Origin: a virus
Lineage: Duplodnaviria > Heunggongvirae > Uroviricota > Caudoviricetes
Virus record (IMG/VR): IMGVR_UViG_2721755711_000003
Location: 1 to 53,171 of that record
Reading direction: 5' to 3' (one strand)
Length of the DNA stretch: 53,171 nucleotides
The notes beneath the pieces were generated by a model. It saw nothing but the letters and a program-made list of their open reading frames with translations, was not told where the DNA came from and did no database searches. Shown one piece after another: positions 8,033 through 53,171 of the stretch (position 1 is its first letter; each line of letters begins with the position of its first letter). The position numbers and the translations under genes are program-made.

Positions 8033-8494
8033 CTACTGGTTACGTTTCTTTAGTGCCAGCATGTTCTCGAAGGCTTCCTCGTAGAGCTTGTTTAGTCCAC
8101 GTAGCTGGTTAAGGAGTTTGGCTTTTTCTGACGCAGGTAGAATCTCGAAGAGGTTAAGCAACTCTGCCTGTTCTTCATTGACCAGCCTCCATCCTTTGCC
8201 TGAAAAGCTATCATCATAAGTATCTGATGATCTTACATAATTCATTAAGTCTTTAAGGTCTTCTCGAATGTCCTCTGGTTTTACCTTTAACAGAGCCGCA
8301 AATTTTAGCGCAGCATCGGTATTTACCGGTATCTTGCCGTTCAGATACTGGCTAACGGTGCCTTGAGATTCGAATCCCAACAACTCAGCCGCCAGCTCTT
8401 GAGTCAGCTTCAGCTCTTTTTTTCTTGCATTCCATGCGGCTTTTAAATTCTTGCTCGCTTCTGGAGTTGCAATCACTTCGCGTGTTTTTTTCAT
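8033..8494 (-). CDS. racR: prophage repressor, RacR-like (HTH)
   Basis: 153-aa ORF with an N-terminal HTH-like segment (LTQELAAELLGFESQGTVSQYLNGK); divergent from the Cro-like ydaS. Confidence 0.65.
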   Translation of the reverse strand: MKKTREVIATPEASKNLKAAWNARKKELKLTQELAAELLGFESQGTVSQYLNGKIPVNTDAALKFAALLKVKPEDIREDLKDLMNYVRSSDTYDDSFSGKGWRLVNEEQAELLNLFEILPASEKAKLLNQLRGLNKLYEEAFENMLALKKRNQ

Positions 8495-13149: not shown

Positions 13150-14040
13150 TCAGGCTGCCAGATCATCGTTTCCGATGGAAGCATAATAAGCTTTTTCTGC
13201 TTCTGCCGGTGGGATATGGCCCAGCCTTTCCAGCAATCGTCGATTGTTATACCAGTCCACCCACGTGAGTGTGGACAGCTCCACTTCTGTCCGGTTTTTC
13301 CAGCGCTTACGGTGTATTACCTCCGCTTTGTAAAGGCCATTGATGCTCTCCGCCATCGCGTTGTCATACGAGTCACCAGTACTCCCTGTTGATGCCAGTA
13401 AGCCGGCTTCCTTAAGCCGCTGCGTGTAGGCCAGCGATACATACTGAGAACCTTTATCACTGTGGTGGATTGTGCCGGACGGCCGACGGGCCCACAACGC
13501 CTGCTCCAGTGCATCCAGCACGAATGCCGTTTCCATGGATGATGAGACCCGCCATCCCACGATGTATCCGGCGAACACATCAATGATGAACGCCACATAA
13601 ACGAAGCCCTGCCATGTGTTTACCCAGGTAAAATCAGCCACCCACAACTGGTCAGGACGTTCTGCCACGAACTGACGGTTTACGCGGTCGCATGCGGCAA
13701 CGGCTTTCCGGCTGACGGTAGTGCGGACCTTTTTACCCCGGAGAACACCGGCAAGTCCCATAACCGCCATGAGACGTGCCACAGTGCATCTGGCCACTCT
13801 GATACCTTCCCGTAACAACTGACGCCAGACTTTACGCACACCGTATACCTGGTGATTTTCATCGTATACGCGCTGTATCTCTTTCTTCAGCCAGTCATCG
13901 CGCTGCGCACGGGCACTGCGTTTATCAGGATGATGTCGCTGTTGCTGACAGTGGTAATACGTTGACGGGGCAATATGCAGTTCGCTGCATACCGGTCCGA
14001 CCCCGTACTGCTCACGCAGCTTATCCAGCAGTGGCATCAT
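13150..14040 (-). CDS. IS3-family transposase OrfB (integrase core)
   Basis: 296-aa ORF with a DDE-type transposase core, overlapping orfA in the arrangement expected for a -1 frameshift fusion. Confidence 0.85.
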
Positions 14041-14363
14041 TTTTTCCAGAGGCGGTCGAACTCCGCCTTCGCAAAATAAGCGGAAGCCTGGCGAAGGATA
14101 TCGTTACTGCGGCGCAGTTCACGATTTTCACGTTCCAGCTCTTTCAGACGCTGACGTTCAGCGGTGGTGAGCCCACCATCACCGCCCCCGGTATCCCGCT
14201 CATGCTGGCGAACCCAGACACGCAGAGTCTCCGGCGTACAGCCAATTTTTGGGGCAATGGAACAAATTGCCGCCCACTGTGAATCATACTCATCCTGACT
14301 TTCCAGAACCATACGAATCGCTCGCTGACGGACTTCGGGGGAAAAACGAGTATTTTTAGTCAT
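14037..14363 (-). CDS. IS3-family transposase OrfA (HTH)
   Basis: 108-aa ORF with HTH and leucine-zipper-like C-terminus, starting just inside the IS629 right inverted repeat. Confidence 0.8.
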
Positions 14364-14578
14364 CCTGTTTACCTCTTTCTCAGGGAGTTTAGTCTCCAGG
14401 ATTCCCGGGACGGTTCAACTTCCATCGAGATCGGGTAATAACATTTGAACAGATCGCTGAATAACATCGATGGAGATCACTTTTGACTCATTTTGTTATT
14501 CAGTGATCTCCATCAATGTTATTGGAACTTCACAGGTGTGTTGATCTGTATCTTTTGCCATTCCGGTAAAGGATACCT

Positions 14579-16120
14579 ATGCCAACAGTTCCAATTTCTA
14601 TGAGAAAACTTAAAGAAATTCTTAGGCTTAAATACGGTGTTGGACTCAGCCATCGACAAATTGGTCGTAGTCTTGCAATCTCCCCTTCCGTTGTATCCAG
14701 ATATGCTAATCGGGCGGCTCAACTTGGCATAAAGCAGTGGCCCTTACCTACAGGATGGGATGATACAAAACTAAAACATGCGTTCCTTCAGACCCAGGTT
14801 AAGATGAAGAAGCACTCTCTGCCTGACTGGGCTACAGTACACCGGGAACTGCGTAATAAATGCGTGACGCTGCAGCTACTCTGGGAAGAATACTGTGAGC
14901 GTAATCCAGGCGGTTTTTACAGCTATAACCATTACTGCCGGATGTACCGTGAATGGCTCAAAACCACTTCACCATCAATGCGTCAGGTACATAAAGCTGG
15001 CGAAAAACTTTTCGTTGATTACTGTGGACCTACCGTTGGCGTTACCGACCCTGAGACCGGAGAAATAAGAACTGCTCAGGTCATCGTAGCTGTTCTCGGG
15101 GCATCAAGTTACACATGGGCAGAGGCCACCTGGTCTCAGCAGCTTGAAGACTGGGTGATGAGTCATGTTCGCTGCTTCCAGTGGTTGGGTGGCGTTCCTG
15201 AACTTGTTGTTCCGGACAATCTGAAAAGCGCCACATCCAGGGCATGTAAGTATGATCCTGACGTTAACCCTACCTACCAGCAGATGCTTGAGCATTATAA
15301 TGTCGCAGTTTTGCCTGCGCGGCCACGTAAACCGAAAGATAAAGCCAAAGCTGAAGTTGGCGTTCAGGTTGTTGAACGCTGGATCATGGCCCGAATCAGG
15401 CATGAGATCTTCTACAGCCTTGCATCGCTTAATCAGCGCATTCGGGAGTTGCTGGAAAGACTGAATAACAAAATAATGCAGAAGTTGGGTTATTCACGTG
15501 CAGAACTCTTCATCCAGCTTGATAAACCCGCACTGAAGCCTCTTCCTGAAGCCAGTTACAGTTACACCCTGGTGAAGAAAGTCAGAGTTCATGCCGATTA
15601 CCACGTGGAAATCGACAAACATTACTACTCGGTTCCATGTTCGCTGTTAGGCCAGCAACTGGAAGCATGGATCTCCGGAGAACTGGTAAGACTCTTCAAT
15701 CAGGGGCAGGAGGTTGCTGTGCACCCGCGCAAGCGTACTTATGGCTACAGTACCCGCAACGAGCACATGCCTGAAGCTCATCGACAGCATGCCACCTGGA
15801 CGCCAGAGCGTCTTCTGGAATGGGCGGGGCACATAGGCAGTGAAACTCATAGTTATGTGCTTCATATACTGAACTCTCGTCCACATCCGGAACAAAGCTA
15901 TCGCTTCTGCCTTGGACTCCTGAACCTTCATAAAAAATACAGTAAAGCCAGACTTAATGCAGCATGTGCAAGAGCTCTGAAAACAAAGGTATGGCGTCTG
16001 TCAGGTATTAAATCGATCCTGGAAAAAGGTCTGGATAAACAACCTGTTCAGGATCCAAAACCAGATCTGTTATCCACGATGGAACACGAAAACGTACGCG
16101 GCAGTGAGTATTACCACTGA
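14579..16120 (+). CDS. istA: IS21-family transposase IstA
   Basis: 513-aa ORF with N-terminal HTH and a DDE-type core, followed by an IstB-like ATPase gene. Confidence 0.75.
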   Translation: MPTVPISMRKLKEILRLKYGVGLSHRQIGRSLAISPSVVSRYANRAAQLGIKQWPLPTGWDDTKLKHAFLQTQVKMKKHSLPDWATVHRELRNKCVTLQLLWEEYCERNPGGFYSYNHYCRMYREWLKTTSPSMRQVHKAGEKLFVDYCGPTVGVTDPETGEIRTAQVIVAVLGASSYTWAEATWSQQLEDWVMSHVRCFQWLGGVPELVVPDNLKSATSRACKYDPDVNPTYQQMLEHYNVAVLPARPRKPKDKAKAEVGVQVVERWIMARIRHEIFYSLASLNQRIRELLERLNNKIMQKLGYSRAELFIQLDKPALKPLPEASYSYTLVKKVRVHADYHVEIDKHYYSVPCSLLGQQLEAWISGELVRLFNQGQEVAVHPRKRTYGYSTRNEHMPEAHRQHATWTPERLLEWAGHIGSETHSYVLHILNSRPHPEQSYRFCLGLLNLHKKYSKARLNAACARALKTKVWRLSGIKSILEKGLDKQPVQDPKPDLLSTMEHENVRGSEYYH

Positions 16121-16131
16121 TACGGGATCCA

Positions 16132-16881
16132 ATGATGAATCATCTTTACGAACAACTGACCGCACTTAAACTCACCGGCTTCCGTGATGCGCTTAAAAAG
16201 CAACTTGCTCAGCCGGGCACATACCAGGAGCTGGGCTTCGAAGAACGCCTGTCATTACTGACAGCAGAAGAACTAACCTGCCGTGAAAACAGGAAGGCAG
16301 AGCGTCTGATCAAACATGCACGGTTCAGACTTAATGCTGAGTTATCAAAGCTGGATTATCGTAACAATAGAGGGCTGGACAGGGCCCTCATCCGTTCACT
16401 CAGTCAGGGAAACTGGTTAACCCTGAAACAAAATATTTTACTGACCGGGGCCACCGGCAGCGGTAAAACGTTCCTGGCATGTGCACTTGGTCATAATGCC
16501 TGCCGACAGGGATACAAGGTCTACTATTATCGCCTTAAAGCGCTGATGGAACAGTGCTATCAGGGGCATGCTGATGGAAGATACAGCAAACTTTTGACCA
16601 GGCTGAATAATAGCGATCTGCTGCTTCTGGATGACTGGGGGCTGGAACCTCTCTCATCAGAACAGCGTAGCGACCTGCTGGAAATAGTGGATCTGATGTA
16701 CCAACGAGGCTCAATCATCGTAGTGAGCCAGTTGCCGGTGGAAAACTGGTACAAAATGATCGGAGACTCCACACATGCGGATGCCATCCTAGATCGACTG
16801 GTTCATGGCAGTATCAAGATCGAACTTAAAGGAGAATCAATGCGGAAAATACAATCTCCGTTGACCGAAGGAGATCAGTGA
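16132..16881 (+). CDS. istB: IS21-family helper ATPase IstB
   Basis: 249-aa ORF with Walker A (LTGATGSGKT) and Walker B (LLLLDDWG) motifs. Confidence 0.8.
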   Translation: MMNHLYEQLTALKLTGFRDALKKQLAQPGTYQELGFEERLSLLTAEELTCRENRKAERLIKHARFRLNAELSKLDYRNNRGLDRALIRSLSQGNWLTLKQNILLTGATGSGKTFLACALGHNACRQGYKVYYYRLKALMEQCYQGHADGRYSKLLTRLNNSDLLLLDDWGLEPLSSEQRSDLLEIVDLMYQRGSIIVVSQLPVENWYKMIGDSTHADAILDRLVHGSIKIELKGESMRKIQSPLTEGDQ

Positions 16882-20155: not shown

Positions 20156-20445
20156 TGGTGAATTTGCGTAAAGCGGCGCGGGGCCAGATGTGCCAGGTCA
20201 GAATTCCTGGCTACTGCAATCACAATCCCGGAACGTCTGTGCTGGCACATTACAGGCTGGCGGGGACGTGTGGAACAGCGACAAAACCACACGATATGCA
20301 GGCGGCGATTGCCTGTAGCTCGTGCCACGATTTAATCGACGGGAGAGTAAAAACCATCGATTACACCAAAGAAGAATTGCGCCTGATGCATGCAGAAGGT
20401 GTTTTTCGCACACAAGAAATCTGGAGAAAGGAGGGATATTTGTGA
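20155..20445 (+). CDS. Cys/His-rich nin-region protein (DUF1364-like, possibly nuclease-related)
   Basis: 96-aa ORF with a C...C / H / C..C..H pattern; start overlaps the upstream stop. Confidence 0.45.
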   Translation: MVNLRKAARGQMCQVRIPGYCNHNPGTSVLAHYRLAGTCGTATKPHDMQAAIACSSCHDLIDGRVKTIDYTKEELRLMHAEGVFRTQEIWRKEGYL

Positions 20446-20984
20446 TTTACCCAACGAATACAGGAAAAAGCGGAGAACACCTTCGTCTCACTACGCTGGA
20501 AAGTGTCTGGTTTCAGGGAAAACTGCGTATGTGGGGGCGCTGGTCGTATATTGGTGGCGGTAAGACAGGGAATATGTTTAACCAGATGTTGACCTCTAAA
20601 AAGCTGACAAAAACGGCAATTAACGAGGTGCTCCGGAGGATGAAAAAAGCAGGTCTGGACAAGCCTGAACTTGAGGCTTTTTTGCGGGATATGATTAACG
20701 GCAAGCAAAAGAGCTGGCTGGCACATTGTGCCGATTCAGAGGCATTAATAATCGACAGAGTTATTGGCGAAGTTATGGCGGATCATCCGGGATTGATTTG
20801 TATTCTCCGGCAACGCTATGAGGGGCGGGGGATGACTAAGCGAAAAATGGCTGAATTGCTAAATGATGCACACCCAGAGTGGTGTTTTAGCACATGCGAA
20901 AAGCGAATTGCTAATTGGTTGGCTGTTGCTGAGTATGCGCTATACATTCCCATGCGAGAATCATTTGCTCAAAAAATGGCTTGA
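20442..20984 (+). CDS. late-gene antiterminator, Q-like
   Basis: GTG 20442 preceded by AAGGAGGG; last early-region gene, followed within 100 bp by a terminator and then tRNAs and lysis genes. Assignment is by position. Confidence 0.5.
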   Translation: MIYPTNTGKSGEHLRLTTLESVWFQGKLRMWGRWSYIGGGKTGNMFNQMLTSKKLTKTAINEVLRRMKKAGLDKPELEAFLRDMINGKQKSWLAHCADSEALIIDRVIGEVMADHPGLICILRQRYEGRGMTKRKMAELLNDAHPEWCFSTCEKRIANWLAVAEYALYIPMRESFAQKMA

Positions 20985-21703: not shown

Positions 21704-21779
<76 letters not shown>

Positions 21780-21782
21780 TAT

Positions 21783-21854
<72 letters not shown>

Positions 21855-22156
21855 CTCTTGTAAAACAAACGAGGCATAGCTTTATCAGCACTGGCGAATT
21901 TTCGCGGAGAACAGCTTTGTAGGTACTATTGTTTTTCTTCATGCTGTAATATCTGAACGGTTACAGTTTCAGTGCTGCTTTTTTTGTATTACATAATGGT
22001 ATGTGATTATTACTTGTAAACGTCGTTAGCAGAATGAGTCGTTACCTGTTCCATGCGCACACGTACAGTAAGCCAGGGTGGCTTTGTAGGTTGACGACTC
22101 ATTCTGGTGGCGACCATATATAAATATAATTCTATTACTACACGATGAATGCTCTG

Positions 22157-35942: not shown

Positions 35943-36873
35943 GGAATTAGCCGAACAGCACAGTTCGCAGCTCTCATCCGTTCTTAAATCCGCAGTTGAA
36001 ACCATCTCGTCAGACCAGGAAATCACGTTCAGGCTCTATGTCCGGCAGGTTCTGCCGCTGGATGGCTTTGTCTATTGGGTTAATGCGGAAATCATCAGTT
36101 GCGATGAACTGTGTCGCCTGAATATTGAGTCACCAACTCGTCTGAAAATCAAAGGCAGCCTGCATCGTCAGGTTATTGCGATTCAGGACGAGTCTGTCTC
36201 GAAGGATGTGAACAACATTATTTTCACGCCTGTTCAGCAGGTTGATGATTTTAATGTGGAAAATCCCGATGCGATCTATCTCGGTGAGTACGGAGGCGTC
36301 CAGTTCGCTTTTTCACGAATGGAGAGCCGTTATCAGCAGTCGGGTATTTTTCATTATCGCGGCATGGCGATTTTACCAACCATGCGTTCCCAGATTATCG
36401 ACTGCGAGGAGGATATCAGCGACGAGCAGATCATCTCCAACAGCATCCCGATCTGGCTGCAAATGAAAGATGCCGCGACCGTGTATCCGTCTTACCTGGT
36501 ACCGCAGAACCTTCGCCCTCCGTATATCGCGGTGGATGTTCGCAACAGTATTCCGTTGCAGGTGGCTCCCGTTGTTTTCGGAGGTGAGCGGTTCCAGCTA
36601 GTCCAGGATTCGGTTCGCCTGACGCTTTACGGATTCAGCAACAAAATGGCGCTGGATCTTGTCGACTCGGTGGTGAACAGGGCGCTGGAGGAGGAAAAGT
36701 TTGGTGTAACCAATATTCCGGTGGTTCAGGACGCAAAGTCGGGACAGGTTGAAATCAACGCTCTGGCGAAGAAAAAGATTGTCGATTTTGACGTGAATTA
36801 CTACCAGAGCACCGCCCGGGAAATATCCCGGCAGTTGATTGAAAAAGTTATTTGTAAATATGAGGTTAAATAA
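35929..36873 (+). CDS. hypothetical structural protein
   Basis: 314 aa. Confidence 0.4.
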   Translation: MPSLEELAEQHSSQLSSVLKSAVETISSDQEITFRLYVRQVLPLDGFVYWVNAEIISCDELCRLNIESPTRLKIKGSLHRQVIAIQDESVSKDVNNIIFTPVQQVDDFNVENPDAIYLGEYGGVQFAFSRMESRYQQSGIFHYRGMAILPTMRSQIIDCEEDISDEQIISNSIPIWLQMKDAATVYPSYLVPQNLRPPYIAVDVRNSIPLQVAPVVFGGERFQLVQDSVRLTLYGFSNKMALDLVDSVVNRALEEEKFGVTNIPVVQDAKSGQVEINALAKKKIVDFDVNYYQSTAREISRQLIEKVICKYEVK

Positions 36874-38210
36874 TGGGATTTAATATCGTCACGGTGAATG
36901 TGTCCCAGACCATCGGGGCCATTCCCTCGAATTTGCAGCAGATGTCTGCGGTTCTCTCGTTTGGTTCCACGACTCATGAGCCGGGAAAACCCGTATTACT
37001 CACCCGTAATCAGGACATTAACGAACTGGTTAAAAATCCGATTGTTGCCTTGTCGGCAGCTGTCGCAGGAAGATCTGCGGCAAGCGTCATCGTAACGATG
37101 ACGCTTCCGGAAGGGAGCAACATCCGACGCGAAAACAGTTCTGAGGTGAAAATTGTTGTTTCCGGGTGTTCGCCCGACGCGTGGAATGGCGAATATACTG
37201 CTACCGTCACGGATGAAAAAACACTGACCTGGACTATTACTGGTTCTCAGCTTTCCGGTTCTCCAGTGACGCTGGGGCAGTTTTCTATTGCTGGCAGTGA
37301 AAATCTGGTGACGGCAGTAAACACGTTTTTTGCCCAGGGAAATTCAGTGGGGATTTACCTGCTGGAGCTGGGAGTACAGAAAGGCGGAGTCAGTAAGGAA
37401 ATCGCTGCGCTGAAATCTTATATGGAAGATCCGCTCCAGCGTTTTTACGCTTATCTGGTACCGCAGACGTGGGATGGCGACGCGGAGTTTATCAGTCTGG
37501 CAAAACTCCACACCGCCAACGAAGCGATGCAGTATTTCTTCGTGCTGACGAAAACGCCGGACGACACGAATTACGTTTCGCCTTATGCCGGTATTAAGTC
37601 GGTTATTGCAACGGCGGATGATACGTACCCGGCGACAAACGCGGCAGCAGCCGTAATGTGGAACTATGTTTCCGCATCACCTTCAGAAATCAACAAGGTG
37701 CCGCCGATGGCATTTCGCTATCTACAGGCGGTAAACGCCCACAAGGGCAAAAATTCCATTCTGGCCACGATGACGAAGCAGAATATTAACTACGTCGAAA
37801 CGGGGGCTGAGGGCGGAATCTCCAACACGATTCTGGTGAAAGGCGTTACCAGTGACGGTAACGATATGACGTACTGGTATTCCGTGGACTGGGTGCAGAT
37901 TAATGTCGATATGCAGCTCGCCAACACGGTGATCAACGGCAGCAATAACCCAATTAACCCGCTTTACTACAACCAGGACGGGATCGACCGTCTACAGCAG
38001 GTCGCACAGGCGGTGTTCAATACGGGCGTATCTTACGGCCTGGTCAACGGCCAGCCTGTCGTCGATGCAGTGCCTTTCCGCCAGTATATCAACACGAATC
38101 CGAATGATTACGGTATCGGGCGTTATGCGGGCCTTTCGGCCTCCTATACGCCGATGCGCGGATTTGTCGAAATCATTTTTAACATCAATGTGACAATGCA
38201 GCTTTCGTGA
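36873..38210 (+). CDS. tail sheath protein (contractile tail)
   Basis: 445 aa; followed by a small tube-sized gene, chaperone-like gene and tape measure. Confidence 0.5.
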   Translation: MGFNIVTVNVSQTIGAIPSNLQQMSAVLSFGSTTHEPGKPVLLTRNQDINELVKNPIVALSAAVAGRSAASVIVTMTLPEGSNIRRENSSEVKIVVSGCSPDAWNGEYTATVTDEKTLTWTITGSQLSGSPVTLGQFSIAGSENLVTAVNTFFAQGNSVGIYLLELGVQKGGVSKEIAALKSYMEDPLQRFYAYLVPQTWDGDAEFISLAKLHTANEAMQYFFVLTKTPDDTNYVSPYAGIKSVIATADDTYPATNAAAAVMWNYVSASPSEINKVPPMAFRYLQAVNAHKGKNSILATMTKQNINYVETGAEGGISNTILVKGVTSDGNDMTYWYSVDWVQINVDMQLANTVINGSNNPINPLYYNQDGIDRLQQVAQAVFNTGVSYGLVNGQPVVDAVPFRQYINTNPNDYGIGRYAGLSASYTPMRGFVEIIFNINVTMQLS

Positions 38211-39342: not shown

Positions 39343-41316
39343 ATGTCAGGTAATCAGATGCCAGTTCTGACACTGGACGTTAATGAAGAACACCTTAAGC
39401 GACTTGAGGCGATATTTGAAAAGTATCGCAATGGGCTGATGATTGGCCCTGCGGGGACGCCGCTTAAAATACCTTCAAATACAGGTCTAGGAGGTGGCAC
39501 GCAGCAGGCAACCTCGGGCGGAGAAGCCAATCAGGCTCCCAGGAAACCATCTTCACCTGCGCCCACCGATGGACGTTTAAGGGATGAAAAAGGGAGCTTT
39601 GTCGGTAGCGGAAAAACACCTGATTCGCTGGTGAGCAACTATAAAGGTCGCGGCGAAACGATGTTTGATAAGTATCTCAGTAGTCTGGGTAAAAACGCTC
39701 AGGGGACGCTGAAAACTTACAAGCAGATCAATTCAACGCTTAAAACGACCAATTCACGACTGAAAACGCTGTTTAAAACGACTGTATCCTGGGGGAGCAA
39801 AATTGCGGCGCTTGGTTCGGTCGGTGCTTTCGGGTACGGATATATGGCGAGCAAGGTTGCAGCGCAATACAGCGTGGCTCAGGGGCTGGGTATGGAAACC
39901 GCACAGATGCAGGCCGCACGTGCCACCTATTCGCCATATTTTTCTGGCACAGAAGAACTGGTTCAGCATCTGGCGAACGCACAGAAAAATCCGAATGATC
40001 CAAACTATGCTGGTCTGGTCAGTCTTGGAATTGATCCTCGAGATGGTGCAGCAAAGAATCTGCCCAAACTTATGAGCGCGCTTGCATCTCTCGTTAAGCA
40101 ATATAAAGGTTCAGGACTTACTCAGGGGATTCTCAACGGACAAGGGCTTGGATTTGTTGATGTCGCGACAACTAACCAGGTGGAAGCGAATCTGGACAAG
40201 ATCCCCCAACTGAACGAGAAATTTGCATCAAATACCAGGTTGCTCGGTGCTTACCTCACGCCAGCTATGCAGTCAGGTTATCAGGATACGGTGAGTAACC
40301 TGATGGTAAATGGAAACAGAATATCAAATTCCTGGTATGCAGCTCTCGCCAGATATAACCCACTAATCACAGGTGCATCTGATGGGCTGACATCCAATAT
40401 TGAAGGTTTTCTGAATGGTGGAAATTTTCAGAAAATTCTCACTGAGGCTGGCGAAGGGCTGGAGAAACTTGGTAAGTGGCTGAATAGCGAACAATTTAAA
40501 AATGATCTTGACGATTTTTCTCTGGCGGTGAGCCGGATTGCAAAAGCAATATGGTCAGCTATCAAATGGATCGGTGGGGAAGATAAATATCTCCCCGGAA
40601 CCGGAGTTGGTGCTGAACAGGCAGATCCAGTTCTTGCGGCATTTGGGAATAAATATCTCGGTGGTGCGTTGCCGGGAGCAAACCCGATGACAAATCAGTA
40701 TACGGGTGAGTTTTATAAACAGGATGATGTATATAAAAATTACCGTATGCCTAATGATTTAAAGAGAAATATTCAGAACTTTGTAGAGCAAGCCAATAAT
40801 ACTTATCGACTTCCTAAAAATATGATGTCAGCTATCGCGGAGGTTGAATCTTCGTGGAATCCTCTGGCAAGAGGAACTCCAGATGAAAAAGGTAGATTCG
40901 CTAAGGGGTTGTGGCAATTCTGGGATAGCACCGCAAAACAGTATGGTCTGGTGGGTGATGATGTTTATGACCCAAATAAATCCACTCTTGCGGCTGGCCG
41001 CTTTTTAAATGATCTGAACCGGCGTTATAAAGGCGATGTGGCAAAAATGCTTACGGCATATAACGGAGGTCGTATTGATAGAGATGGAAATCTAAGTTTG
41101 AGAATGGAGACTGTAAAATATTTAATTAAATTATTGCCTCAGATACAGGGAGCTTTGGATCAACACCCTGGTATTATGAATCAGCTAAGAAATGCCAGAG
41201 ATAACCTTCAGGGTGCTGGCAAAAATGCCCGCGCAATAATTGAGCTTCAGGTGCGACAATCGCCGGGTTCCGACATACTGGCACAACTCGCCGGAACGCA
41301 ACAAATACCGGGGTAA
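39343..41316 (+). CDS. tail tape measure protein with C-terminal lytic transglycosylase-like domain
   Basis: 657 aa; helical Gly/Ala-rich N-terminal part; C-terminal region with transglycosylase-like motifs (AIAEVESSWNP, GLWQF, TAYNGG). Confidence 0.6.
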   Translation: MSGNQMPVLTLDVNEEHLKRLEAIFEKYRNGLMIGPAGTPLKIPSNTGLGGGTQQATSGGEANQAPRKPSSPAPTDGRLRDEKGSFVGSGKTPDSLVSNYKGRGETMFDKYLSSLGKNAQGTLKTYKQINSTLKTTNSRLKTLFKTTVSWGSKIAALGSVGAFGYGYMASKVAAQYSVAQGLGMETAQMQAARATYSPYFSGTEELVQHLANAQKNPNDPNYAGLVSLGIDPRDGAAKNLPKLMSALASLVKQYKGSGLTQGILNGQGLGFVDVATTNQVEANLDKIPQLNEKFASNTRLLGAYLTPAMQSGYQDTVSNLMVNGNRISNSWYAALARYNPLITGASDGLTSNIEGFLNGGNFQKILTEAGEGLEKLGKWLNSEQFKNDLDDFSLAVSRIAKAIWSAIKWIGGEDKYLPGTGVGAEQADPVLAAFGNKYLGGALPGANPMTNQYTGEFYKQDDVYKNYRMPNDLKRNIQNFVEQANNTYRLPKNMMSAIAEVESSWNPLARGTPDEKGRFAKGLWQFWDSTAKQYGLVGDDVYDPNKSTLAAGRFLNDLNRRYKGDVAKMLTAYNGGRIDRDGNLSLRMETVKYLIKLLPQIQGALDQHPGIMNQLRNARDNLQGAGKNARAIIELQVRQSPGSDILAQLAGTQQIPG

Positions 41317-42251: not shown

Positions 42252-43258
42252 TGCGTTATTACCGACTGGAAATTATTAATCCTAAAACAGGCAAGCCGCC
42301 AGTGGATAGCAATGGAAAACCCATTGGACCTTTTGATACCAGTGAAACACCAGGATGTGGGTTGCATGTTGAATTTGACTTTGAAGTAACCGGCCTGGAT
42401 GTAGTCTGTTCGGGCACGATGCTGACGATCTATGGATTACCAATTGACATGCTGAAGCAAAGCGTAAGCTTGCAGGGTTGTCTGGTCCGTATGAAAGCAG
42501 GCTTTGTTCAGGGGTTACCACTGGCAAATAAGGATCAACAGGGGGAGGTAATCTATGGTGAAATTTATCTGGCCTATGCCAACTGGATCGGCACGAACCA
42601 GACTTTAAACCTGGTAATAAATCCAAGCATACGCAAAACCGATGACGGTAAACCTTTTTCAATTGAGGGGCAGGGGGAAGCAGGCGAAAGGGTTGGCGAT
42701 GTTTTAGTCCGCGCTTTGCAAAAAGCATATCCCAATAAATTGATTGATTGCACAGTCAGCGACAACCTAGTTTTGCCAGAGCCGTGGACGGGTAAATATA
42801 CAGAGATTGGTTCTCTGGCAATGGTCGTAAAAAACGCCTCTATTGCGATGATGCGTAATGAAAGGTATAGCGGAATCGCCATCAGTATTCTTTCCGACAG
42901 AATACGAATCTACGATAACGCATCGGCAAAGTGGGGTGAGCCAAAAACAATTCATGCCCATGAACTGGTCGGGCAGCCGACATGGGTAGCGCCGTTTACC
43001 GTCAGCTTCAAATGCCCGATGAGGGGCGATATCAGATGTGGTGATGTGGTTAATTTGCCGGAGGGGCTTTATTCGGGCGCCGCGTCGATTGTGATGGCTA
43101 ATACAATGGCTCCTGGCGTTATCTCCAAAAACTCGACCACGTTTACCGGGAAATTTCTTGTGAAATCGGTCAGACACATTGGTTCGTATCTGACAGCCGA
43201 TGGCGATGCCTGGGTGACGGTATTCGAGGCATATGCTGAGAACTGGGCGAGGGTGTAA
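42251..43258 (+). CDS. baseplate hub-like protein
   Basis: 335 aa; position between tape measure and spike-like gene. Confidence 0.4.
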   Translation: MRYYRLEIINPKTGKPPVDSNGKPIGPFDTSETPGCGLHVEFDFEVTGLDVVCSGTMLTIYGLPIDMLKQSVSLQGCLVRMKAGFVQGLPLANKDQQGEVIYGEIYLAYANWIGTNQTLNLVINPSIRKTDDGKPFSIEGQGEAGERVGDVLVRALQKAYPNKLIDCTVSDNLVLPEPWTGKYTEIGSLAMVVKNASIAMMRNERYSGIAISILSDRIRIYDNASAKWGEPKTIHAHELVGQPTWVAPFTVSFKCPMRGDIRCGDVVNLPEGLYSGAASIVMANTMAPGVISKNSTTFTGKFLVKSVRHIGSYLTADGDAWVTVFEAYAENWARV

Positions 43259-43971
43259 TGTCAAACGCTCAAAAAATACCGTTTCTCCGAACGCTGTCGG
43301 AGATGATGACCAGTTCTGGTAACCAGCAAGCCGAGCTTAAAGGCCGTGAATTGCCCTGCCATGTTGTCGATGTCAGCGGGCAGATAGTGACAGTTCAGTT
43401 TGATATGCTCCCCGAGGGGATCAACTTTCCGCAGATAACAATCCCTGTCGCCACATTCCCGTATATCCGTTACCCGATACAGCCGGGCGATCGAGGAGTA
43501 ACAATTGCCGCTGATGTATCCCTGCGCGGTGTGTCCGGGTTGGGAACTGGTATGGCGACGCTCTCTTACTCGATGTCGCTCACTCCCCTGTTTTTCGTGC
43601 CACTGGCAAACAAGGACTGGTCCGACGAAGATCCGCAAAAAATCGTTTTGTACGGTCCGGATGGCGCGATCCTCAAAACAGAGGACGGCAGTAGCTCGGT
43701 AACGGTGGCTCCGGAAGAAATCAGGCAAAAGTCGAAAGCTGTTTACCTTGAGGCCGAAGATATTTTCCTGAACGGGAAAATTCACCTCAACGGACCGATC
43801 GTCCAGGACAAAGCCCAGATGAAGGATACAACCGCTTCGCTGATTGGCCCTCTTAAGGTCGAGAAAGATGCAGTTATCAACGGCGTGAGCGCCAGCGGCC
43901 ACAGCCACGATGTGACTGGCGTTCAAAGCGGCGGCAGCACGATCACGTCGAAGCAACCAAATCCGGGTTAA
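43258..43971 (+). CDS. baseplate spike protein (gpV-like)
   Basis: 237 aa with Gly/Ser-rich C-terminal region. Confidence 0.45.
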   Translation: MSNAQKIPFLRTLSEMMTSSGNQQAELKGRELPCHVVDVSGQIVTVQFDMLPEGINFPQITIPVATFPYIRYPIQPGDRGVTIAADVSLRGVSGLGTGMATLSYSMSLTPLFFVPLANKDWSDEDPQKIVLYGPDGAILKTEDGSSSVTVAPEEIRQKSKAVYLEAEDIFLNGKIHLNGPIVQDKAQMKDTTASLIGPLKVEKDAVINGVSASGHSHDVTGVQSGGSTITSKQPNPG

Positions 43972-44009
43972 CCGGTTAATTTCACTTTAAATTCTATCCA
44001 TAAAGCGAA

Positions 44010-44042
44010 AGCCCCGACTGGGCAAACAGTCGGGGCTTTTTG
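44010..44042 (+). terminator. rho-independent terminator
   Basis: AGCCCCGACTG / CAGTCGGGGCT stem, GGCAAA loop, then TTTTT. Confidence 0.65.
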
Positions 44043-44073
44043 TTTCTGACCTTGAATAAGGCAAGGAGAAGTC

Positions 44074-44211
44074 GTGTTTGATTTTAGCAAACTGATTCGG
44101 GAGATTCGAGTTATGGCTGAAAAATTATCCACCTGGAAGTTTTTGCTTATTTGGTTGGTCTTTCTGATTCTTGCGTCTGGTTATTTTGTTGGTCAGATCC
44201 GATGGTGGTGA
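44074..44211 (+). CDS. small membrane protein
   Basis: GTG 44074 preceded by AAGGAGAAG (in-frame ATG at 44113); hydrophobic WKFLLIWLVFLILASGYFVG segment. Confidence 0.3.
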   Translation: MFDFSKLIREIRVMAEKLSTWKFLLIWLVFLILASGYFVGQIRWW

Positions 44212-44218
44212 GGGCGCG

Positions 44219-44566
44219 ATGAGAACATGGGGCCGCGTCAACGACGCGAACGGCAACAAAAAATGGGTTGCAGTAGAATCTGACACCAACGGTGATTTCT
44301 CCTACGGCTGGCTGACGACGCTCATTCAGACGTTAAAGCTGGGGTTGGGGGAGTCGCCGTTTTACGCGAATTACGGCATTCCAGCGCAGCAGTGCATCGT
44401 GCAGCAGATTTACCCGGACTACTATGTGAACATGGTTCAGCAACAGTATGCCGGGTATTTTGCATCGCTGGCAATTTCAAAAGTAGATGGGGCAGAGAAC
44501 CCCACCTATAACATCGATGTTGTGTTTTTTAACGGAACCAGTTACCGGACGCAGGTTCCGGTTTGA
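44219..44566 (+). CDS. hypothetical protein
   Basis: ATG 44219 (MRTWGRVNDANGNKKW...); 115 aa. Confidence 0.4.
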   Translation: MRTWGRVNDANGNKKWVAVESDTNGDFSYGWLTTLIQTLKLGLGESPFYANYGIPAQQCIVQQIYPDYYVNMVQQQYAGYFASLAISKVDGAENPTYNIDVVFFNGTSYRTQVPV

Positions 44567-45111
44567 GGCAAGTTTTCGGGCATCAATTGGGCCAGTGGCG
44601 TGTTAAGAAGTTCATCGCGTGGCATGACAATCCATCCACTTTTGCGTAGTAAGTGAATTGCCCATTCTGTGGTGATAACTGAGCCTGATTTGTGGTGCTC
44701 AATGTGGGTAACCGAGCCGTTTCTGACGCGCATGATGATGTCAACATTCAGAGGGGATTGTGTGCTGGTGGTATCTTCGCGCAGCTTCTTCTCGCACTCG
44801 ATGAAGTATCGGCGGATCTGGCGTCCTTTTTCGTTGCGCTCGACCATTGCCAGTTCTTTGGCGGTGTCTAGGGTGAGGTGGTAGTCCTTGCGGTTATGTC
44901 CTCCTCTGCCTCCTAACGATTGCTTTCCTGTTTTGGAAAGCAAAATGTAATCTTGATTTTCTGTAAATCCGTATTCTGCGATGCGGGATGTAATCCAGGC
45001 TGCGAAAACCTTACCTACACCAAGAAAAGCGTGCAGATCACGAGCATTACAGAGTAGGGCGGTTTCGTTTGAGATAGTTCCGTTGAAAACGGGGATTAAT
45101 TGTATTGTCAT
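44542..45111 (-). CDS. antirepressor-like protein (AntA-type N-terminal domain)
   Basis: 189 aa on the opposite strand inside the baseplate cluster; N-terminal region LLCNARDLHAFLGVGKVFAAWITSRIAEYGF typical of antirepressor domains. Confidence 0.55.
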   Translation of the reverse strand: MTIQLIPVFNGTISNETALLCNARDLHAFLGVGKVFAAWITSRIAEYGFTENQDYILLSKTGKQSLGGRGGHNRKDYHLTLDTAKELAMVERNEKGRQIRRYFIECEKKLREDTTSTQSPLNVDIIMRVRNGSVTHIEHHKSGSVITTEWAIHLLRKSGWIVMPRDELLNTPLAQLMPENLPQTGTCVR

Positions 45112-45183
45112 AACGACCTCACTGATTTTTTCGAATTTCCACTATCGGAGTGGAGCCGGGAGGTTCGAAACGGCTCAGTGAGG
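45112..45183 (-). promoter_or_regulatory. structured 5' leader of the antirepressor gene
   Basis: Perfect 9-bp inverted repeat (CCTCACTGA at 45117-45125, TCAGTGAGG at 45175-45183); one arm contains the GAGG ribosome-binding site; two internal hairpins. Confidence 0.4.
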
Positions 45184-45443
45184 CCGCGGACTTATTCCCC
45201 TTTCGGGTGTTGTATTCGTCGCCCTCCCGACATTGTTCGGGGATGTGACCGCACATTGTGCCATCACTAAATAGCAGGCATAAAAAATCCAACACTAACG
45301 GGGTTGGTTGTGACCGCACTGAGAAGAGGTTTCGACGCCTCATGCGCTTAATCATACTCAACTGGGCGCGGTTGTAAAGTATGAACTTGAACGGACATTA
45401 AGAATGGGTAAAATTTAATCTCCTGTTTTTAAGGAGATTACGG

Positions 45444-46190
45444 ATGATTAAGTTTAAATTATTTGTAGTGTTTGCTTTTTTATTACAAATCGGAACTGCG
45501 AATGCGGTATCTTTTGATTGCTCGAAAGCTAAATCATATTCTGAAAAGTTAATTTGCAGCAACAGTGAATTATCTGAACTTGATGATAAATTAAATTCTT
45601 TATATCAAAAAGTAAAGTTAGAGAGCGCTGATAAGAAAGCTTTTAGAAAAATTGTTTCAGACTTGTGGAATGAAAGAGAGAAGTGCAAAACAGAATCATG
45701 TGTTCGACAATGGTATTCTAATGCATTCAGGGAATATTCATCTTTAAATGAAATTAATGAGAACATAATCAATGAATCAAAGAATTACGCTGAATGGTAT
45801 ATTGATGGTGCACTGATAATATTACCTCCACTGGAAGGTGTTAGTAAAAATAGATTCCTGATGTATGGCGATGATGGGACAATAGCTATTTTTATTGCTT
45901 CAAAATCTAAAGGCAATGGATTTTGCGATAATTCAGTGCAAATTGATGGGCCATTAGAGTATCCACCAATTTTGATTAATGGTGAATATTATAAAACTTA
46001 TAAATCATGCTTGTATGGAAATGGTTTTATAGTACCAAAAACTGAAATTGGTAAAGCGGTTCTGAAAGAATTGGTTATGAAAATGAAGCCTATAAAAATT
46101 TCTTTTGGAGACGGCGATGAATTTAACTATCCTCCATCAAATGTAAAAAGAATGCTTGAGAGGGTGGAAAAAATGAAACAGGCAAAATAA
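45444..46190 (+). CDS. secreted protein with LprI-like (DUF1311-like) N-terminal domain
   Basis: 248 aa; signal peptide MIKFKLFVVFAFLLQIGTANA; Cys-containing N-terminal region (FDCSKAKSYSEKLICSN...LNSLYQ); clearly lower GC than flanking tail genes; own terminator. Confidence 0.55.
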   Translation: MIKFKLFVVFAFLLQIGTANAVSFDCSKAKSYSEKLICSNSELSELDDKLNSLYQKVKLESADKKAFRKIVSDLWNEREKCKTESCVRQWYSNAFREYSSLNEINENIINESKNYAEWYIDGALIILPPLEGVSKNRFLMYGDDGTIAIFIASKSKGNGFCDNSVQIDGPLEYPPILINGEYYKTYKSCLYGNGFIVPKTEIGKAVLKELVMKMKPIKISFGDGDEFNYPPSNVKRMLERVEKMKQAK

Positions 46191-46198
46191 GTTAACTT

Positions 46199-46221
46199 AA
46201 AACCGCTTCGGCGGTTTTTTT
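46199..46221 (+). terminator. rho-independent terminator
   Basis: AACCGC / GCGGTT stem, TTCG loop, then a T7 run. Confidence 0.65.
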
Positions 46222-46232
46222 ATGGGGTAGAT

Positions 46233-47459
46233 ATGTCTGAAATACCAATTACTATGACCAGTGCGGGTGCGCAGCCTACGCCACCCAATGATTTGCTCGC
46301 AAATCTTATCACCAGAGTTGCTGAAAAAGTACCTGGATATACAGCCAACCTTCCGGCAGGACTTATTACAGACCTTGCCAGCACGGCAGTAGGGGCGCTG
46401 GCATTAATAGACCAGGCGCGGGTTGATCTTATTAACTCCGTAAGCCCATACGGCGCGAATATTCCGTTACTGATGCAACTCGGAAACATATATGGAGCAC
46501 AGAAGGGATTAAGTACAAATACGGCGGTATACGTGGTGTTTGAAGCGTTGCCGGGGTTTGGTATCCCTAAAGGATTTGTGGTTGGAGACGGTAACTACCA
46601 GTATGCGGTTTCCCGCGATACTGTGGTACCGGAAAGCGGGCAGACTGAGCCAGTTTACTGTGTGGCCACAACGTCAGGCTCATGGGCTGTACCGGAAGGG
46701 ACCGTGACGCAGGTTATTACATCAGTACCCAAAGACCAGCCTGTAAAATGCACGAACCTTACCGCAGGGATGCCAGGTCAGGAGGAGCAGACGTGGGCAT
46801 CTTACCGCGCCGAAGTCATGGAGTCTGGCATGTTTGGTGTGCAGGGAACACCGGATTGCTTTAAAGCGATGCTCAAATCAGTAAGCGGTGTGCGCGAAAA
46901 CCTGATTTCTTTCCGGCAGTCGTCGCTGGGGAAATGGGTTGCGGTTGTTGGTGGCGGTGATCCGTATGATGTGGCTTATGCGATTTACAAATCTGTACCG
47001 GACATTTCGAAACTGACCAACGATGTTAGCAATCCATCCGGTGCGGCAGTGGAAAAACGCACGGTTTCAATAACCGTTTCGCCGGACGTTTATCAGGTAC
47101 CGTTCGTTATCCCGTCATCACAAAACGTCATGGTGCTAATCACCTGGAACACGGTGTCTGATGATTATGTTGATCCGGCGGGTATTGCTATGGCTGTGCA
47201 GCAAAACGTTGCTGATTACATCAATTCAATTGAAGTCGGACACCCGATAAATCTTCTGCGTATCCAGGATATTTTTACCAGTTCCGTCAGGTTGCTGGTT
47301 GATGCGACGTTGATCTCAACAATCAGTGTGAGCATTGGTATTAACGGCCATATTGTTCTTCCGGCGAAAGACACAAGCCTGGTTTATGGCGATACCTATT
47401 CCTATTTTTCAACGGTGGCATCACAGGTTCAGGTCAACAAGTATGCAATATCTGACTGA
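46233..47459 (+). CDS. baseplate protein (gpJ-like)
   Basis: 408 aa; resumes the tail module after the moron island. Confidence 0.45.
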   Translation: MSEIPITMTSAGAQPTPPNDLLANLITRVAEKVPGYTANLPAGLITDLASTAVGALALIDQARVDLINSVSPYGANIPLLMQLGNIYGAQKGLSTNTAVYVVFEALPGFGIPKGFVVGDGNYQYAVSRDTVVPESGQTEPVYCVATTSGSWAVPEGTVTQVITSVPKDQPVKCTNLTAGMPGQEEQTWASYRAEVMESGMFGVQGTPDCFKAMLKSVSGVRENLISFRQSSLGKWVAVVGGGDPYDVAYAIYKSVPDISKLTNDVSNPSGAAVEKRTVSITVSPDVYQVPFVIPSSQNVMVLITWNTVSDDYVDPAGIAMAVQQNVADYINSIEVGHPINLLRIQDIFTSSVRLLVDATLISTISVSIGINGHIVLPAKDTSLVYGDTYSYFSTVASQVQVNKYAISD

Positions 47460-51565: not shown

Positions 51566-52129
51566 ATGGAAATAAAACGCATCGAAAATGCGCGTTATCT
51601 TGAAAATGGCGCGATTGACTGCGGGGTGTTGTTTGATGGCATGGATGAACCGGTTCCGTATACGGCAACTGCCACGGATACAGCAGAGACAGGGCAGCGA
51701 GTCTGGCAGGAGCTGCAAAGCGGGAGATGGGGAGAAATAACGCCGTTCACCGTCACGTCAGAGATGCTGGAAGCAGCAAAAGCAGCCAAACGCCGGGAAA
51801 TTGAAGCATGGCGTACAGAGCAGGAGGCGCAGCCATTCATTTTTGAATGGAACGGTCATAGCTGGAACGGGGGACCGGATTCGATGGCCCGTCTTTATCC
51901 GGTGGCGATGGCATCGAAATCCGACACAGCACGGGACGTCATGACGTGGGGCGATGCGGAAAATCAGCAGGTAAAGTTGTCAATGCAACAACTGGATGAG
52001 CTACTTACTGCAATGGTTCAGGCGCAGGTTGATCGCAATGATGAAATTTATCGCCGTCAGCGAGAGATGAAAGAAGCGTTAAATACACTGAAGGATCTGA
52101 GCTCAATCAGAAAGCTGGCAATTAACTAG
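51566..52129 (+). CDS. tail fibre assembly / chaperone-like protein
   Basis: ATG 51566; 187 aa immediately downstream of the second fibre gene. Confidence 0.4.
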   Translation: MEIKRIENARYLENGAIDCGVLFDGMDEPVPYTATATDTAETGQRVWQELQSGRWGEITPFTVTSEMLEAAKAAKRREIEAWRTEQEAQPFIFEWNGHSWNGGPDSMARLYPVAMASKSDTARDVMTWGDAENQQVKLSMQQLDELLTAMVQAQVDRNDEIYRRQREMKEALNTLKDLSSIRKLAIN

Positions 52130-52217
52130 TAATTTACGGGTGATTTTGGGCTTTTGTTACACATTCGCAACGAAGAATTGTGTGCCATTAGCCCAAGAAA
52201 ATTATATTTTAATGATT

Positions 52218-53171
52218 TCAACAGTTACTAGTGTGTTTCTTGTTATAATCGTCAAGTAAAAAATCTTTGTGTTTTTCAGCCAGTAAACCTACTTCCCCCC
52301 ATTTCAAAATATGTGTCCAGTATCCCATGCCGACAGATGATATTGGAGCGTAAAAAATAATAATTCTATTTTTTGCATTTTCGTCCGTTATACCACGAGA
52401 AATTGCAGTGTTATTTTCTATTCGCACTCTGAAATCAGGATAATAACAAGAATCTTTTAATTTTAACCATACGGTTGAATGATTAGTATGTTGTTCTATT
52501 GAACTTATTTCACCAAAATAAAACCCCGGTTCTTCTTGTTCAGAGCGGATATCAGAAATACTTTTTAATGCATCGCAAAAAATATAACTGTGAGCGAGAC
52601 CAGTGCCAGTGGTGATAAATATCTCTTTATAGTAGTTTTCTTGAAAGTTAGTACATAGAGCTTGCACGCTTGTTATCTTACTGGGCAGATTGAATGTTTC
52701 ACCTTGATGACGAGAGATGGGAATTTCAACAAATACCCCATTTTTACTTTCAAAGTACATTTCCGTTGGAGTGGCGGAAGAATCTGTATTATCACGATAT
52801 ACAAGTTCTGGTCGTTCCTGCATGAATCCGGATATGATAATGACATCATTGTCGCTAACAGCTTTTTGGGCTTCTTCTTCACTAGAATAGCGTTTCCCGA
52901 TAATAGCTCCGCTTCTCAACAAACAAAAAGGAGCATTTGGATTTGGGTAGTGGCGGAAGAGAGCTTCTCGCCCGTCAGTCATAATCGTTATACTTGACTC
53001 TGATGGTATACGATTAAGTGGCTCATAACATTGGGGACAAATGAGATGATCTTTCATTTCTTCTTGATATTCTAATGGTCCAACACTTGTACGAACTAAC
53101 TGTGCTGTACTGTGTATGCTTTTATCCCATACAGGATCGAAATAAGCATAGGCAATGCGGCGGCTAGTCAT
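52218..53171 (-). CDS. hypothetical protein, AT-rich cargo gene (function unknown)
   Basis: 317-aa minus-strand ORF whose start codon is the last three bases of the window; visibly lower GC than the adjacent tail-fibre genes; CPQCYEP motif near the N-terminus; no family recognised. Confidence 0.5.
   Translation of the reverse strand: MTSRRIAYAYFDPVWDKSIHSTAQLVRTSVGPLEYQEEMKDHLICPQCYEPLNRIPSESSITIMTDGREALFRHYPNPNAPFCLLRSGAIIGKRYSSEEEAQKAVSDNDVIIISGFMQERPELVYRDNTDSSATPTEMYFESKNGVFVEIPISRHQGETFNLPSKITSVQALCTNFQENYYKEIFITTGTGLAHSYIFCDALKSISDIRSEQEEPGFYFGEISSIEQHTNHSTVWLKLKDSCYYPDFRVRIENNTAISRGITDENAKNRIIIFYAPISSVGMGYWTHILKWGEVGLLAEKHKDFLLDDYNKKHTSNC

Follow-up and report, generated by a model that had tools for sequence, protein, structure and literature searches.

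Temperate phages are known to carry accessory genes, or morons, in their late operons, as with lom and bor of lambda and the hotspot of P2, and to control antirepressors by antisense RNAs, as in the immI regions of P1 and P7 (c4 RNA) and of P22 (mnt-arc-ant, sar RNA). Here we compare these systems with one region of a 53,171-nucleotide (nt) stretch of tailed-virus DNA (IMG/VR record IMGVR_UViG_2721755711_000003; "the window" means the whole of this stretch). The region lies between a V-like spike gene and a J-like wedge gene of a baseplate operon, and a preliminary description had taken 44050-46232 for a single moron island. The features that it listed, namely a strong terminator, a small membrane protein, a protein of 115 amino acids (aa), an antirepressor gene in reverse orientation and a low-GC secreted protein, are all found where it had placed them. 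The explanation that we consider best, with a probability of about 0.75, groups them differently: the 115-aa gene (W) would be a core gene of the baseplate operon with a cargo slot on either side, the antirepressor gene (ant) would be locked by a c4-type antisense RNA, and an LprI-like gene would form a separate cargo cassette.

The region is an ordinary moron hotspot whose boundaries had been misdrawn. As in lom, bor and the P2 hotspot, a low-GC gene forming an autonomous unit, with a terminator of its own and a site resembling a promoter, lies between genes that abut in relatives; as in other late-operon morons of prophages, the content varies among close relatives and a terminator insulates the cargo from the late operon. 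It differs from the lambda and P2 morons in that two slots surround a single small core gene, in that one slot of the window houses a regulatory (immunity) module besides lysogenic-conversion cargo, and in that the cargo open reading frame (ORF) can be swapped 3' of a shared promoter region (as in the Escherichia coli relative STEC383). Beyond an ordinary hotspot, the analysis adds two things: the 115-aa gene is identified as a core gene, and ant appears to carry a c4-type RNA lock.

A fixed gene between two variable slots

The junctions on either side of W, with their flanking genes, contain the following features.

43258-43971, plus strand: V-like baseplate spike gene, 237 aa; left flank of slot A; V lies upstream of the 115-aa gene in 23/23 loci
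43972-44218: slot A, junction of V and W; holds a terminator and the 45-aa membrane protein gene
44007-44040: strong intrinsic-terminator hairpin 3' of V; stem of 14 base pairs (bp), then UUUUUGUUU (U-run); folding energy (dG) -29.3 kcal/mol
44074-44211, plus strand: gene of a 45-aa single-pass membrane protein with one hydrophobic segment (WKFLLIWLVFLILASGYFVG); phrog_6632 full-length, E 2e-28; GC 39.9%
44219-44566, plus strand: W, the 115-aa gene; phrog_7986; in the gpW/gp25 (sheath initiator) position
44567-46232: slot B, junction of W and J; reverse-oriented antirepressor module and swappable cassette
45381-46231, plus strand: swappable cargo cassette of slot B; GC 31.8%; limits from homology breaks to relatives
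46233-47459, plus strand: J-like baseplate wedge gene; right flank of slot B; PF04865, 33.1 bits against a cutoff of 21.1; phrog_6

The synteny of W was sampled at 23 loci, obtained from a scan of one genome per species and ordered by tblastn with the tail proteins of the window; they range over Yersinia, Erwinia, Pantoea, Serratia, Burkholderia, Acinetobacter, Desulfobulbia, Nitrospira, Sphingomonadaceae and Verrucomicrobia. The operon of the window runs hub, V, W, J, I-like, fibre, and the order hub, V, 115-aa gene, J, 209-aa gene, fibre recurs at 23/23 loci, with 44-89% identity of the 115-aa protein to that of the window. At 18 of the 23 loci the slot B insert is absent and W and J are less than 100 nt apart, often 6-20 nt. 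The protein is conserved as well as its neighbours or better (in the Desulfobulbia locus 45% identity, against 31% for V and 39% for J), and its length is nearly constant among 700 database homologues. Because related phages keep W at the same position in 23/23 loci, it can be taken as a core structural gene rather than island cargo, with V-W-J as the core order, and we regard the two-slot architecture around it as highly likely. The preliminary description implied that the 115-aa gene is missing from relatives, and proposed to see whether V and J are adjacent there. V and J are never adjacent, and the outcome that it had named as refuting, conservation in related phages as a structural component at this position, holds for the 115-aa gene alone of those assigned to the island. 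The GC and codon profiles that it had proposed as a check set apart the cargo gene at 45444-46190 (GC 31.2%, GC at third codon positions (GC3) 24.5%, against 49% GC in the tail module) but not W, which is composed like a tail gene (GC 50.9%, GC3 63.8%).

The position of W is that of a sheath initiator. It is encoded between the spike gene and the J/gp6-like gene of a sheath-bearing tail, as are P2 gpW, Mu gp46 and T4 gp25, and it resembles the gpW/gp25/TssE family (PF04965) in its length of about 115 aa and in belonging to a contractile tail, where its gene stands between those of the spike (V) and of a gp6/J-like wedge protein. A structural model of moderate confidence (predicted local distance difference test, pLDDT, 74; residues 46-61 disordered) gave weak matches to 2ia7, XM1 gp15, TssE and Bas63 gp022 in a search where unrelated folds reach similar scores, and Foldseek matches among viral models (BFVD) at E 0.01-0.2 are enriched in 'baseplate wedge', 'gpW', 'Gp25-like' and 'sheath initiation'. 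Unlike the position, the sequence has no detectable relationship to PF04965: the protein and 43 homologues matched nothing in Pfam, NCBIfam, annotated PHROGs or the PDB (phmmer/hmmsearch), and none of the 700 homologues has a Pfam domain. Position and weak fold matches together make it fairly likely that W is a gp25/gpW-like sheath initiator, that is, that it works like gp25, its membership in PF04965 being unproven. The 115-aa 'hypothetical protein' of hundreds of prophages is a constant component of the baseplate, and in this tail type it is probably the sheath initiator that had been missing.

The content of the slots was read from the annotated regions of eleven E. coli relatives together with blastn mapping of the junctions. 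A prophage of the bovine strain E. coli F2_407_2_2 shares 99.9% identity with the window, and Rac-SA53 and the record 'Actinobacillus phage pPE4' are ~93-97% identical to it across this region. In slot A, the window, Rac-SA53, pPE4 and Yersinia similis have the terminator and the 45-aa gene (91% aa identity in Y. similis); ETEC1706 and STEC367 carry an additional Rha-family regulator gene, STEC383 a second, diverged copy of the 45-aa gene, and ETEC4085 and 52F4 a different 357-nt segment. The 45-aa protein is absent in Erwinia, Pantoea and more distant relatives. Where its gene is lacking (Erwinia, Pantoea, Pseudescherichia and beyond) only 6-20 nt separate V from W, and the V terminator hairpin appears to have arrived along with the slot A insert. 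The 45-aa ORF is left unannotated by RefSeq (Prokaryotic Genome Annotation Pipeline, PGAP) in every E. coli genome examined. The V terminator may be bidirectional, also ending the ant transcript after its antisense passage through the 115-aa and 45-aa genes. A sar-like RNA at this terminator (44004-44070, minus strand) was rejected, its 24.4 bits against a cutoff of 43 reflecting hairpin resemblance only.

In slot B the cargo changes more widely. Homology of the cassette to relatives is lost on the left at 45342, 45380 or 45430 and is back exactly at 46232/46233 (blastn), the right junction of every cargo variant being the J start codon. The variants in E. coli relatives are the LprI-like gene, rac61/rac62, a 179-aa ORF, 74- and 103-aa ORFs, 227- and 163-aa ORFs, or an added YafO toxin pair, and cargo unlike that of the window is found in Rac-SA53, pPE4, TUM9812 (the YafO pair), STEC383, TUM9757, JNEC-KY178, and ETEC and STEC strains. 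Since homology to STEC383 runs through 45430 and a different cargo ORF then begins where the LprI-like ORF begins, the promoter-like region is shared and the ORF alone exchanged. The ant gene is present in slot B of all E. coli relatives examined, and, being truncated in pPE4 and frameshifted in JNEC-KY178, it is dispensable. Farther away, slot B is empty in Y. similis (W-J gap 67 nt), and Erwinia, Pantoea and two Serratia species have other low-GC genes at this junction, the YafO pair included, with no match to ant. As is expected of morons, the genes flanking both slots abut in insert-free relatives, and the cassette has its own terminator and a deviant composition (GC 31.8% vs 49%). The earlier reading of 44050-46232 as accessory DNA thus stands for 44567-46232, which is absent in Y. 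similis, and fails for the 115-aa gene, present at 23/23 loci; in place of one island between V and J, E. coli relatives have inserts on either side of W.

Both junctions beside W are places to search for accessory, possibly defence, genes. None of 10 slot cargo proteins compared matched a PADLOC defence model, and Pfam names only YafO toxins and the Rha regulator; a defence-system identity for this cargo was therefore dropped. In Pantoea stewartii (L008:8154-9303) the J-like gene is interrupted after codon 32 by ~1.15 kb of 50% GC, a probable mobile element with two ORFs (219 and 242 aa).

A putative c4-type lock on ant

The antirepressor module of slot B points against the tail operon and comprises these features.

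44542-45111, minus strand: ant, an antirepressor of the AntA/AntB family, 189 aa; PF08346, 90.5 bits against a cutoff of 27; phrog_14211, phrog_5817, phrog_377
45115-45125, minus strand: b2 target, UCAGUGAGGUC; covers the ant Shine-Dalgarno (SD) sequence, 4 nt upstream of the ATG; complementary to the RNA hairpin-2 loop
45129-45135, minus strand: a2 target, UUCGAAA; complementary to the RNA junction segment UUUCGAA; covaries across loci
45147-45231, minus strand: candidate c4-type antisense RNA, sRNA-Xcc1 (Rfam RF02221); 72.4 bits against a gathering score of 53, E 1.2e-12; b' at 45183-45175, a' at 45170-45164
45317-45323, minus strand: b1, upstream target copy; CUCAGUG, then CGG as in P1 b1; complementary to the loop
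45351-45378, minus strand: promoter-like site for the RNA-ant transcript, TTTACA-16-TATGAT, 10/12, a consensus match only; within a 332-nt region upstream of ant

The 3' end of ant overlaps the 115-aa gene by 25 nt, and at its other end only 35 nt separate the RNA from the ATG. The hairpin-2 loop CCUCACUGA is the exact complement of UCAGUGAGG, the SD region of ant just upstream of the ATG, and the a2 site lies ~10 nt further upstream; for a1 there is a partial match by eye only (UCGAAA at ~45336-45331). An RF02221 match precedes ant in 13 relatives and is missing in pPE4, where a deletion of the 5' end has removed the first 25 codons of ant, the RNA and the promoter. Three alleles are found at the slot B locus with loop and SD fully compensated: CCUCACUGA/UCAGUGAGG in the window, CUUGUA/UACAAG in Rac-SA53 and UCUUUUUGC/GCAAAAAGA in STEC383.

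The pairing was examined across phage loci. A scan of IMG/VR for the conserved hairpin-1 core of sRNA-Xcc1 gave 120 loci, and 19 of 20 that were sampled pass the RF02221 threshold. The covariation test used the 101 loci with a start codon 60-125 nt downstream, and the RNA/target pairings were permuted 2000 times.

Hairpin 2 against the SD window: own mean complementary run 7.93; permuted 5.75 (standard deviation, sd, 0.11); 79 pair types; 0/2000
Junction against the spacer: own mean run 6.14; permuted 5.01 (sd 0.10); 52 pair types; 0/2000
Hairpin 2 against the upstream copy, 75-140 nt 5' of the RNA (99 loci): own 7.51; permuted 5.55 (sd 0.09); 0/2000

The cross controls, hairpin against spacer and junction against SD, showed little or no excess over permutation. 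The c4-type reading of sRNA-Xcc1 is thus well supported by covariation, and c4-type control of ant in the window appears very likely. More generally, sRNA-Xcc1 is probably a sister of the P1 c4 RNA, a portable leader whose variable hairpin-2 loop and junction would pair with the ribosome-binding region of the downstream gene. The genes downstream across the loci encode KilA-N, AntA, ORF6N, Rha and Bro-N regulators and a small 83-aa family, and on one preprint's account symE would join those under such a leader.

The layout closely follows that of P1 and P7 immI. The GenBank record of phage P1 annotates a promoter, a1, b1, c4 RNA, a2, b2, icd and ant in that order, and the window has a promoter-like site, a1/b1, a structured RNA, a2/b2 and an antirepressor gene in the same order. 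The two RNAs share a closing stem, two hairpins, b' in the second loop, a' in the following junction and a ..CCAC.. tail (b' from 50 and a' at 62 of 85 in the window; b' at 37 and a' at 51 of 77 in P1), and the consensus structure lines of RF02221 and RF01695 have the same topology and a similar CCaCC tail. In both systems b2 lies over a ribosome-binding site, and the similarity extends to the sequence of the b sites (P1 GUUAGUGAGGCCGU, window AUCAGUGAGGUCGU); both phages read AGUGCGG in b1 and AGUGAGG in b2, with C in b1 and A in b2. The window differs from P1 in hairpin 1, which is a conserved AUACAA..CCCGNAAGGG..GAA element where P1 has a UUCG hairpin, in that no C1-type operator was recognised, and in that the module lies inside the tail operon of a lambdoid prophage, against its direction. 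The Rfam c4-a1b1 family (RF03163) had no match in the window leader. P22 immI likewise combines an antirepressor module among late/structural genes with antisense-RNA control of ant translation (PMC12197685), but the window has no arc- or mnt-like repressor genes, and sar is a true cis-antisense transcript whereas the window RNA is co-oriented with ant.

If sRNA-Xcc1 does act in this way, the at least 79 pair types in ~100 phage loci would be a heteroimmunity code of the P1/P7 kind, and copies annotated as virulence small RNAs (sRNAs) would have to be reinterpreted as locks on the genes next to them. An Rfam family so far lacking a mechanism would be linked to a well-understood one, and the target predictions made for sRNA-Xcc1 in plant pathogens would be questioned. 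The lock sequence also differs between near-identical prophages, from which one would predict the phages, co-resident or incoming, that are able to induce each other. In a 2025 review of phage sRNAs, c4 is covered without a connection being drawn to sRNA-Xcc1; with Chen et al. 2011 outside the comparison, neither a c4-type switch on ant nor a c4-type sRNA-Xcc1 was found stated in print, and the reading looks new.

In published reports sRNA-Xcc1 precedes an ORF6N gene in APSE phages and neighbours C4 and isrK in Xylella; a preprint finds it before symE in integron cassettes, 'suggesting a divergent regulatory mechanism'. Leader RNA arrays also occur in the phage contigs, resembling five tandem copies reported in Xylella: one has the order isrK, C4, sRNA-Xcc1, gene, isrK, C4 (L071:2422-3753), a second has two sRNA-Xcc1 copies ~380 nt apart, each with its own ORF after it and a different loop (L105:8279-9164), and a third two copies ~530 nt apart (L099:2288-2842).

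Within the ant leader of the window, two direct copies of GUGCGGUCACA lie 63 nt apart (45308-45318 and 45245-45255, minus strand); the first overlaps b1, and the second may be a second decoy site or a protein operator. Some other forms of control were considered and rejected. For LexA there is no CTGT-N8-ACAG site with up to 1 mismatch within 43483-46620. A tRNA-like element suggested by the GGTTCGAA motif is not among the ARAGORN calls, which are two tRNAs at 21704-21855, and the motif corresponds to a'. A link to the 24B_1 'microRNA' of an Stx phage, to which control of d_ant has been ascribed, was dropped because its gene lies between lom and vb_24B_43, in another part of the genome; it is a different element.

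The LprI-like cargo protein

The cassette of the window consists of one gene with its signals.

45387-45414, plus strand: promoter-like site of the cargo gene, TTGAAC-16-TAAAAT, 9/12, a consensus match only; region common to STEC383
45444-46190, plus strand: secreted two-domain protein, 248 aa; N-terminal LprI/DUF1311-like helical domain and C-terminal beta-rich domain
46199-46218, plus strand: hairpin of the cargo gene terminator, with a U-run to 46222; 8-bp stem, UUCG loop; dG -10.3

The preliminary description was right that the low-GC gene has its own terminator (46199-46218), and the composition dip at this gene is the lowest within the profiled 38-53 kb. The N-terminus, MIKFKLFVVFAFLLQIGTANA followed by VS (…GTANA/VS), reads as a Sec-type signal, A-x-A site included. 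Four cysteines of the mature protein lie in the helical N-domain and two nearly invariant ones in the C-domain, and an AlphaFold2 (AF2) model reaches pLDDT 81. PGAP names it 'lysozyme inhibitor LprI family'; its homologues are a single close protein cluster and two distant N-terminal ones, which pass the Pfam LprI cutoff at 26.1 and 23.1 bits. An exhaustive HMMER search relates the C-domain to a small family of ~158-aa signal-peptide proteins that has no Pfam or NCBIfam assignment; matches in giant proteins, short and lying within MBG_2 or ankyrin repeat proteins, were dismissed as spurious. The LprI-like gene is rare: a match covering at least 80% of the query stretch occurs in 16/5426 complete E. 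coli genomes, and the gene is located at slot B only, in 10/10 genomic places.

DUF1311 proteins are periplasmic and disulfide-stabilised and have been tied to lysozyme resistance, lytic transglycosylase levels and type VI secretion system (T6SS) immunity (PMC7933661, PMC12135965). With Mycobacterium tuberculosis LprI, Salmonella ScwA and the T6SS immunity candidates the window protein shares a signal peptide, a four-cysteine helical N-domain and a low-GC, horizontally acquired gene (PMC7933661). It differs in scoring below the Pfam cutoff, in being fused to a second, beta-rich domain found elsewhere alone, and in having no lipobox, and is therefore not a lipoprotein. As a tentative proposal, it could be a Sec-exported, disulfide-rich protein that binds or modulates peptidoglycan hydrolases in the periplasm, to the benefit of the lysogen.

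Points against the preferred explanation, and alternatives

Several points weigh against the explanation preferred here. In print, sRNA-Xcc1 is taken for a trans-acting sRNA (PMC2996969; Chen 2011, as later papers cite it). The window RNA had no match to Rfam C4 (RF01695) even at E 10, while P1 c4 itself scores 68.8 bits, and Rfam puts RF02221 in no clan, outside the C4 clan (CL00128). Between the window RNA and ant there is no icd-like ORF, so that the coupling step of P1 is absent and the RNA would target the SD of ant itself. Promoter and terminator scans, compared with shuffled sequence, were overall no higher than the shuffled expectation, single promoter calls being consensus matches only. 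For the cargo, the window protein scores 18.2 bits to Pfam LprI (PF07007), below the cutoff of 22; no fold assignment was obtained for its C-terminal domain; and ScwA, the sole characterised enterobacterial DUF1311 protein, had no role in lysozyme resistance (PMC7933661).

It could be that the leader works in cis only, as an SD-sequestering 5' untranslated region that switches translation and yields no processed, diffusible immunity RNA. RNA and targets do lie on one predicted transcript, and complementarity alone fits cis and trans action alike; yet the same layout in P1 gives a processed 77-nt trans-acting repressor (P1 annotation; PMC12197685), in many loci the closing stem is followed by N-CCA or N-CCC like the 3' end of the Rfam C4 consensus, and many loop specificities suit an immunity code, all of which leaves us doubtful of a purely cis-acting leader. 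Distinctly unlikely is a free-standing trans-acting sRNA directed at host genes, as proposed in Xanthomonas and Xylella, with the adjacency to ant incidental. The literature does describe a trans-acting, virulence-linked and HrpG/HrpX-controlled sRNA, carried on Xanthomonas integrons and Xylella islands, with predicted host or plant targets, and the copies upstream of symE in integron cassettes would suit it, but the loop varies by locus, always in step with the SD of the next gene downstream and with the upstream copy. A fixed host target would instead constrain the loop; the layout also matches P1 immI, and in phage loci the RNA stands in series with C4 and isrK elements. Additional trans targets besides the adjacent gene may exist.

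Of the readings that concern the genes rather than the RNA, a single moron island covering the whole of 44050-46232 between V and J, the 115-aa gene included, is very improbable. Four genes do lie between the V-like and J-like genes, with a strong terminator 3' of V and mixed composition, but the 115-aa gene occupies this place in 23/23 relatives across phyla, often 6-50 nt from J, its product is among the best conserved of the module, its GC of 50.9% and GC3 of 63.8% fit tail genes, and DNA is inserted on both sides of it in E. coli relatives. We also think it unlikely that the LprI-like protein serves the phage, by restraining the lytic transglycosylase (SLT) domain of the tape-measure protein or the lysis enzymes, or by blocking the tail muralytic enzymes of superinfecting phages. 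The SLT domain is present (phrog_2013; PF01464) and lysozyme-type enzymes have been linked to DUF1311 proteins (PMC7933661, PMC12135965); any target is putative, however, and because most members of the lineage lack the gene, the isolated phages Rac-SA53 and pPE4 among them, phage growth does not require it.

Proposed working of the region

Under the preferred explanation of a core gene, two slots and a locked ant, the late operon of the lysogen would be silent, and the cassette promoter would yield the secreted LprI-like protein. The promoter on the ant strand would yield the antisense RNA, and pairing of the loop with b2 (the SD) and of the junction with a2 would together block translation of Ant. 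The earlier suggestion that the island can be expressed from the lysogen without late transcription is plausible for the LprI-like cassette and the antisense RNA; for the Ant protein it could not hold, because the ribosome-binding site of ant is the predicted target of that RNA. The RNA could also act in trans on an incoming phage of the same loop specificity. During lytic growth, expression of W, J and the fibres would depend on late transcription passing both terminators (44007-44040 and 46199-46222), presumably through a Q-like antiterminator (20322-20984), and this transcription would run antisense across ant.

The prophage setting

The window represents an E. coli prophage of the lambdoid type that has a contractile tail and is kin to phage Rac-SA53; its early region is lambdoid as well. 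Outside the region described above, the following genes bear on this assignment.

8033-8494, minus strand: CI-like helix-turn-helix gene; lambdoid early region
20322-20984: Q-like antiterminator gene; lambdoid early region
36873-38210: sheath gene; phrog_205
39343-41316: protein in tape-measure position, 657 aa; C-terminal SLT domain; phrog_2013, PF01464

Resemblance of the V-like ORF to gpV is no more than weak (TIGR01644 E 5.5e-4, below cutoff; Apex motif E 0.03), and annotations of relatives call the gene 'bppV' or 'phage baseplate protein'. Two insertion sequences lie in the early region (13150-16881), an IS3-family transposase at 13150-14363 on the minus strand and an IS21-family pair at 14579-16881 on the plus strand, and the prophage may be defective. 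The record PP818812.1, 'Actinobacillus phage vB_Apl-pPE4', is ~97% identical here to E. coli prophages, and its host assignment seems doubtful. Downstream of the tail-fibre genes, 52100-53171 forms a second low-GC stretch (33-42%), in which a reverse ORF (52218-53171) runs off the window end; this stretch may be a further cargo site or the prophage boundary.

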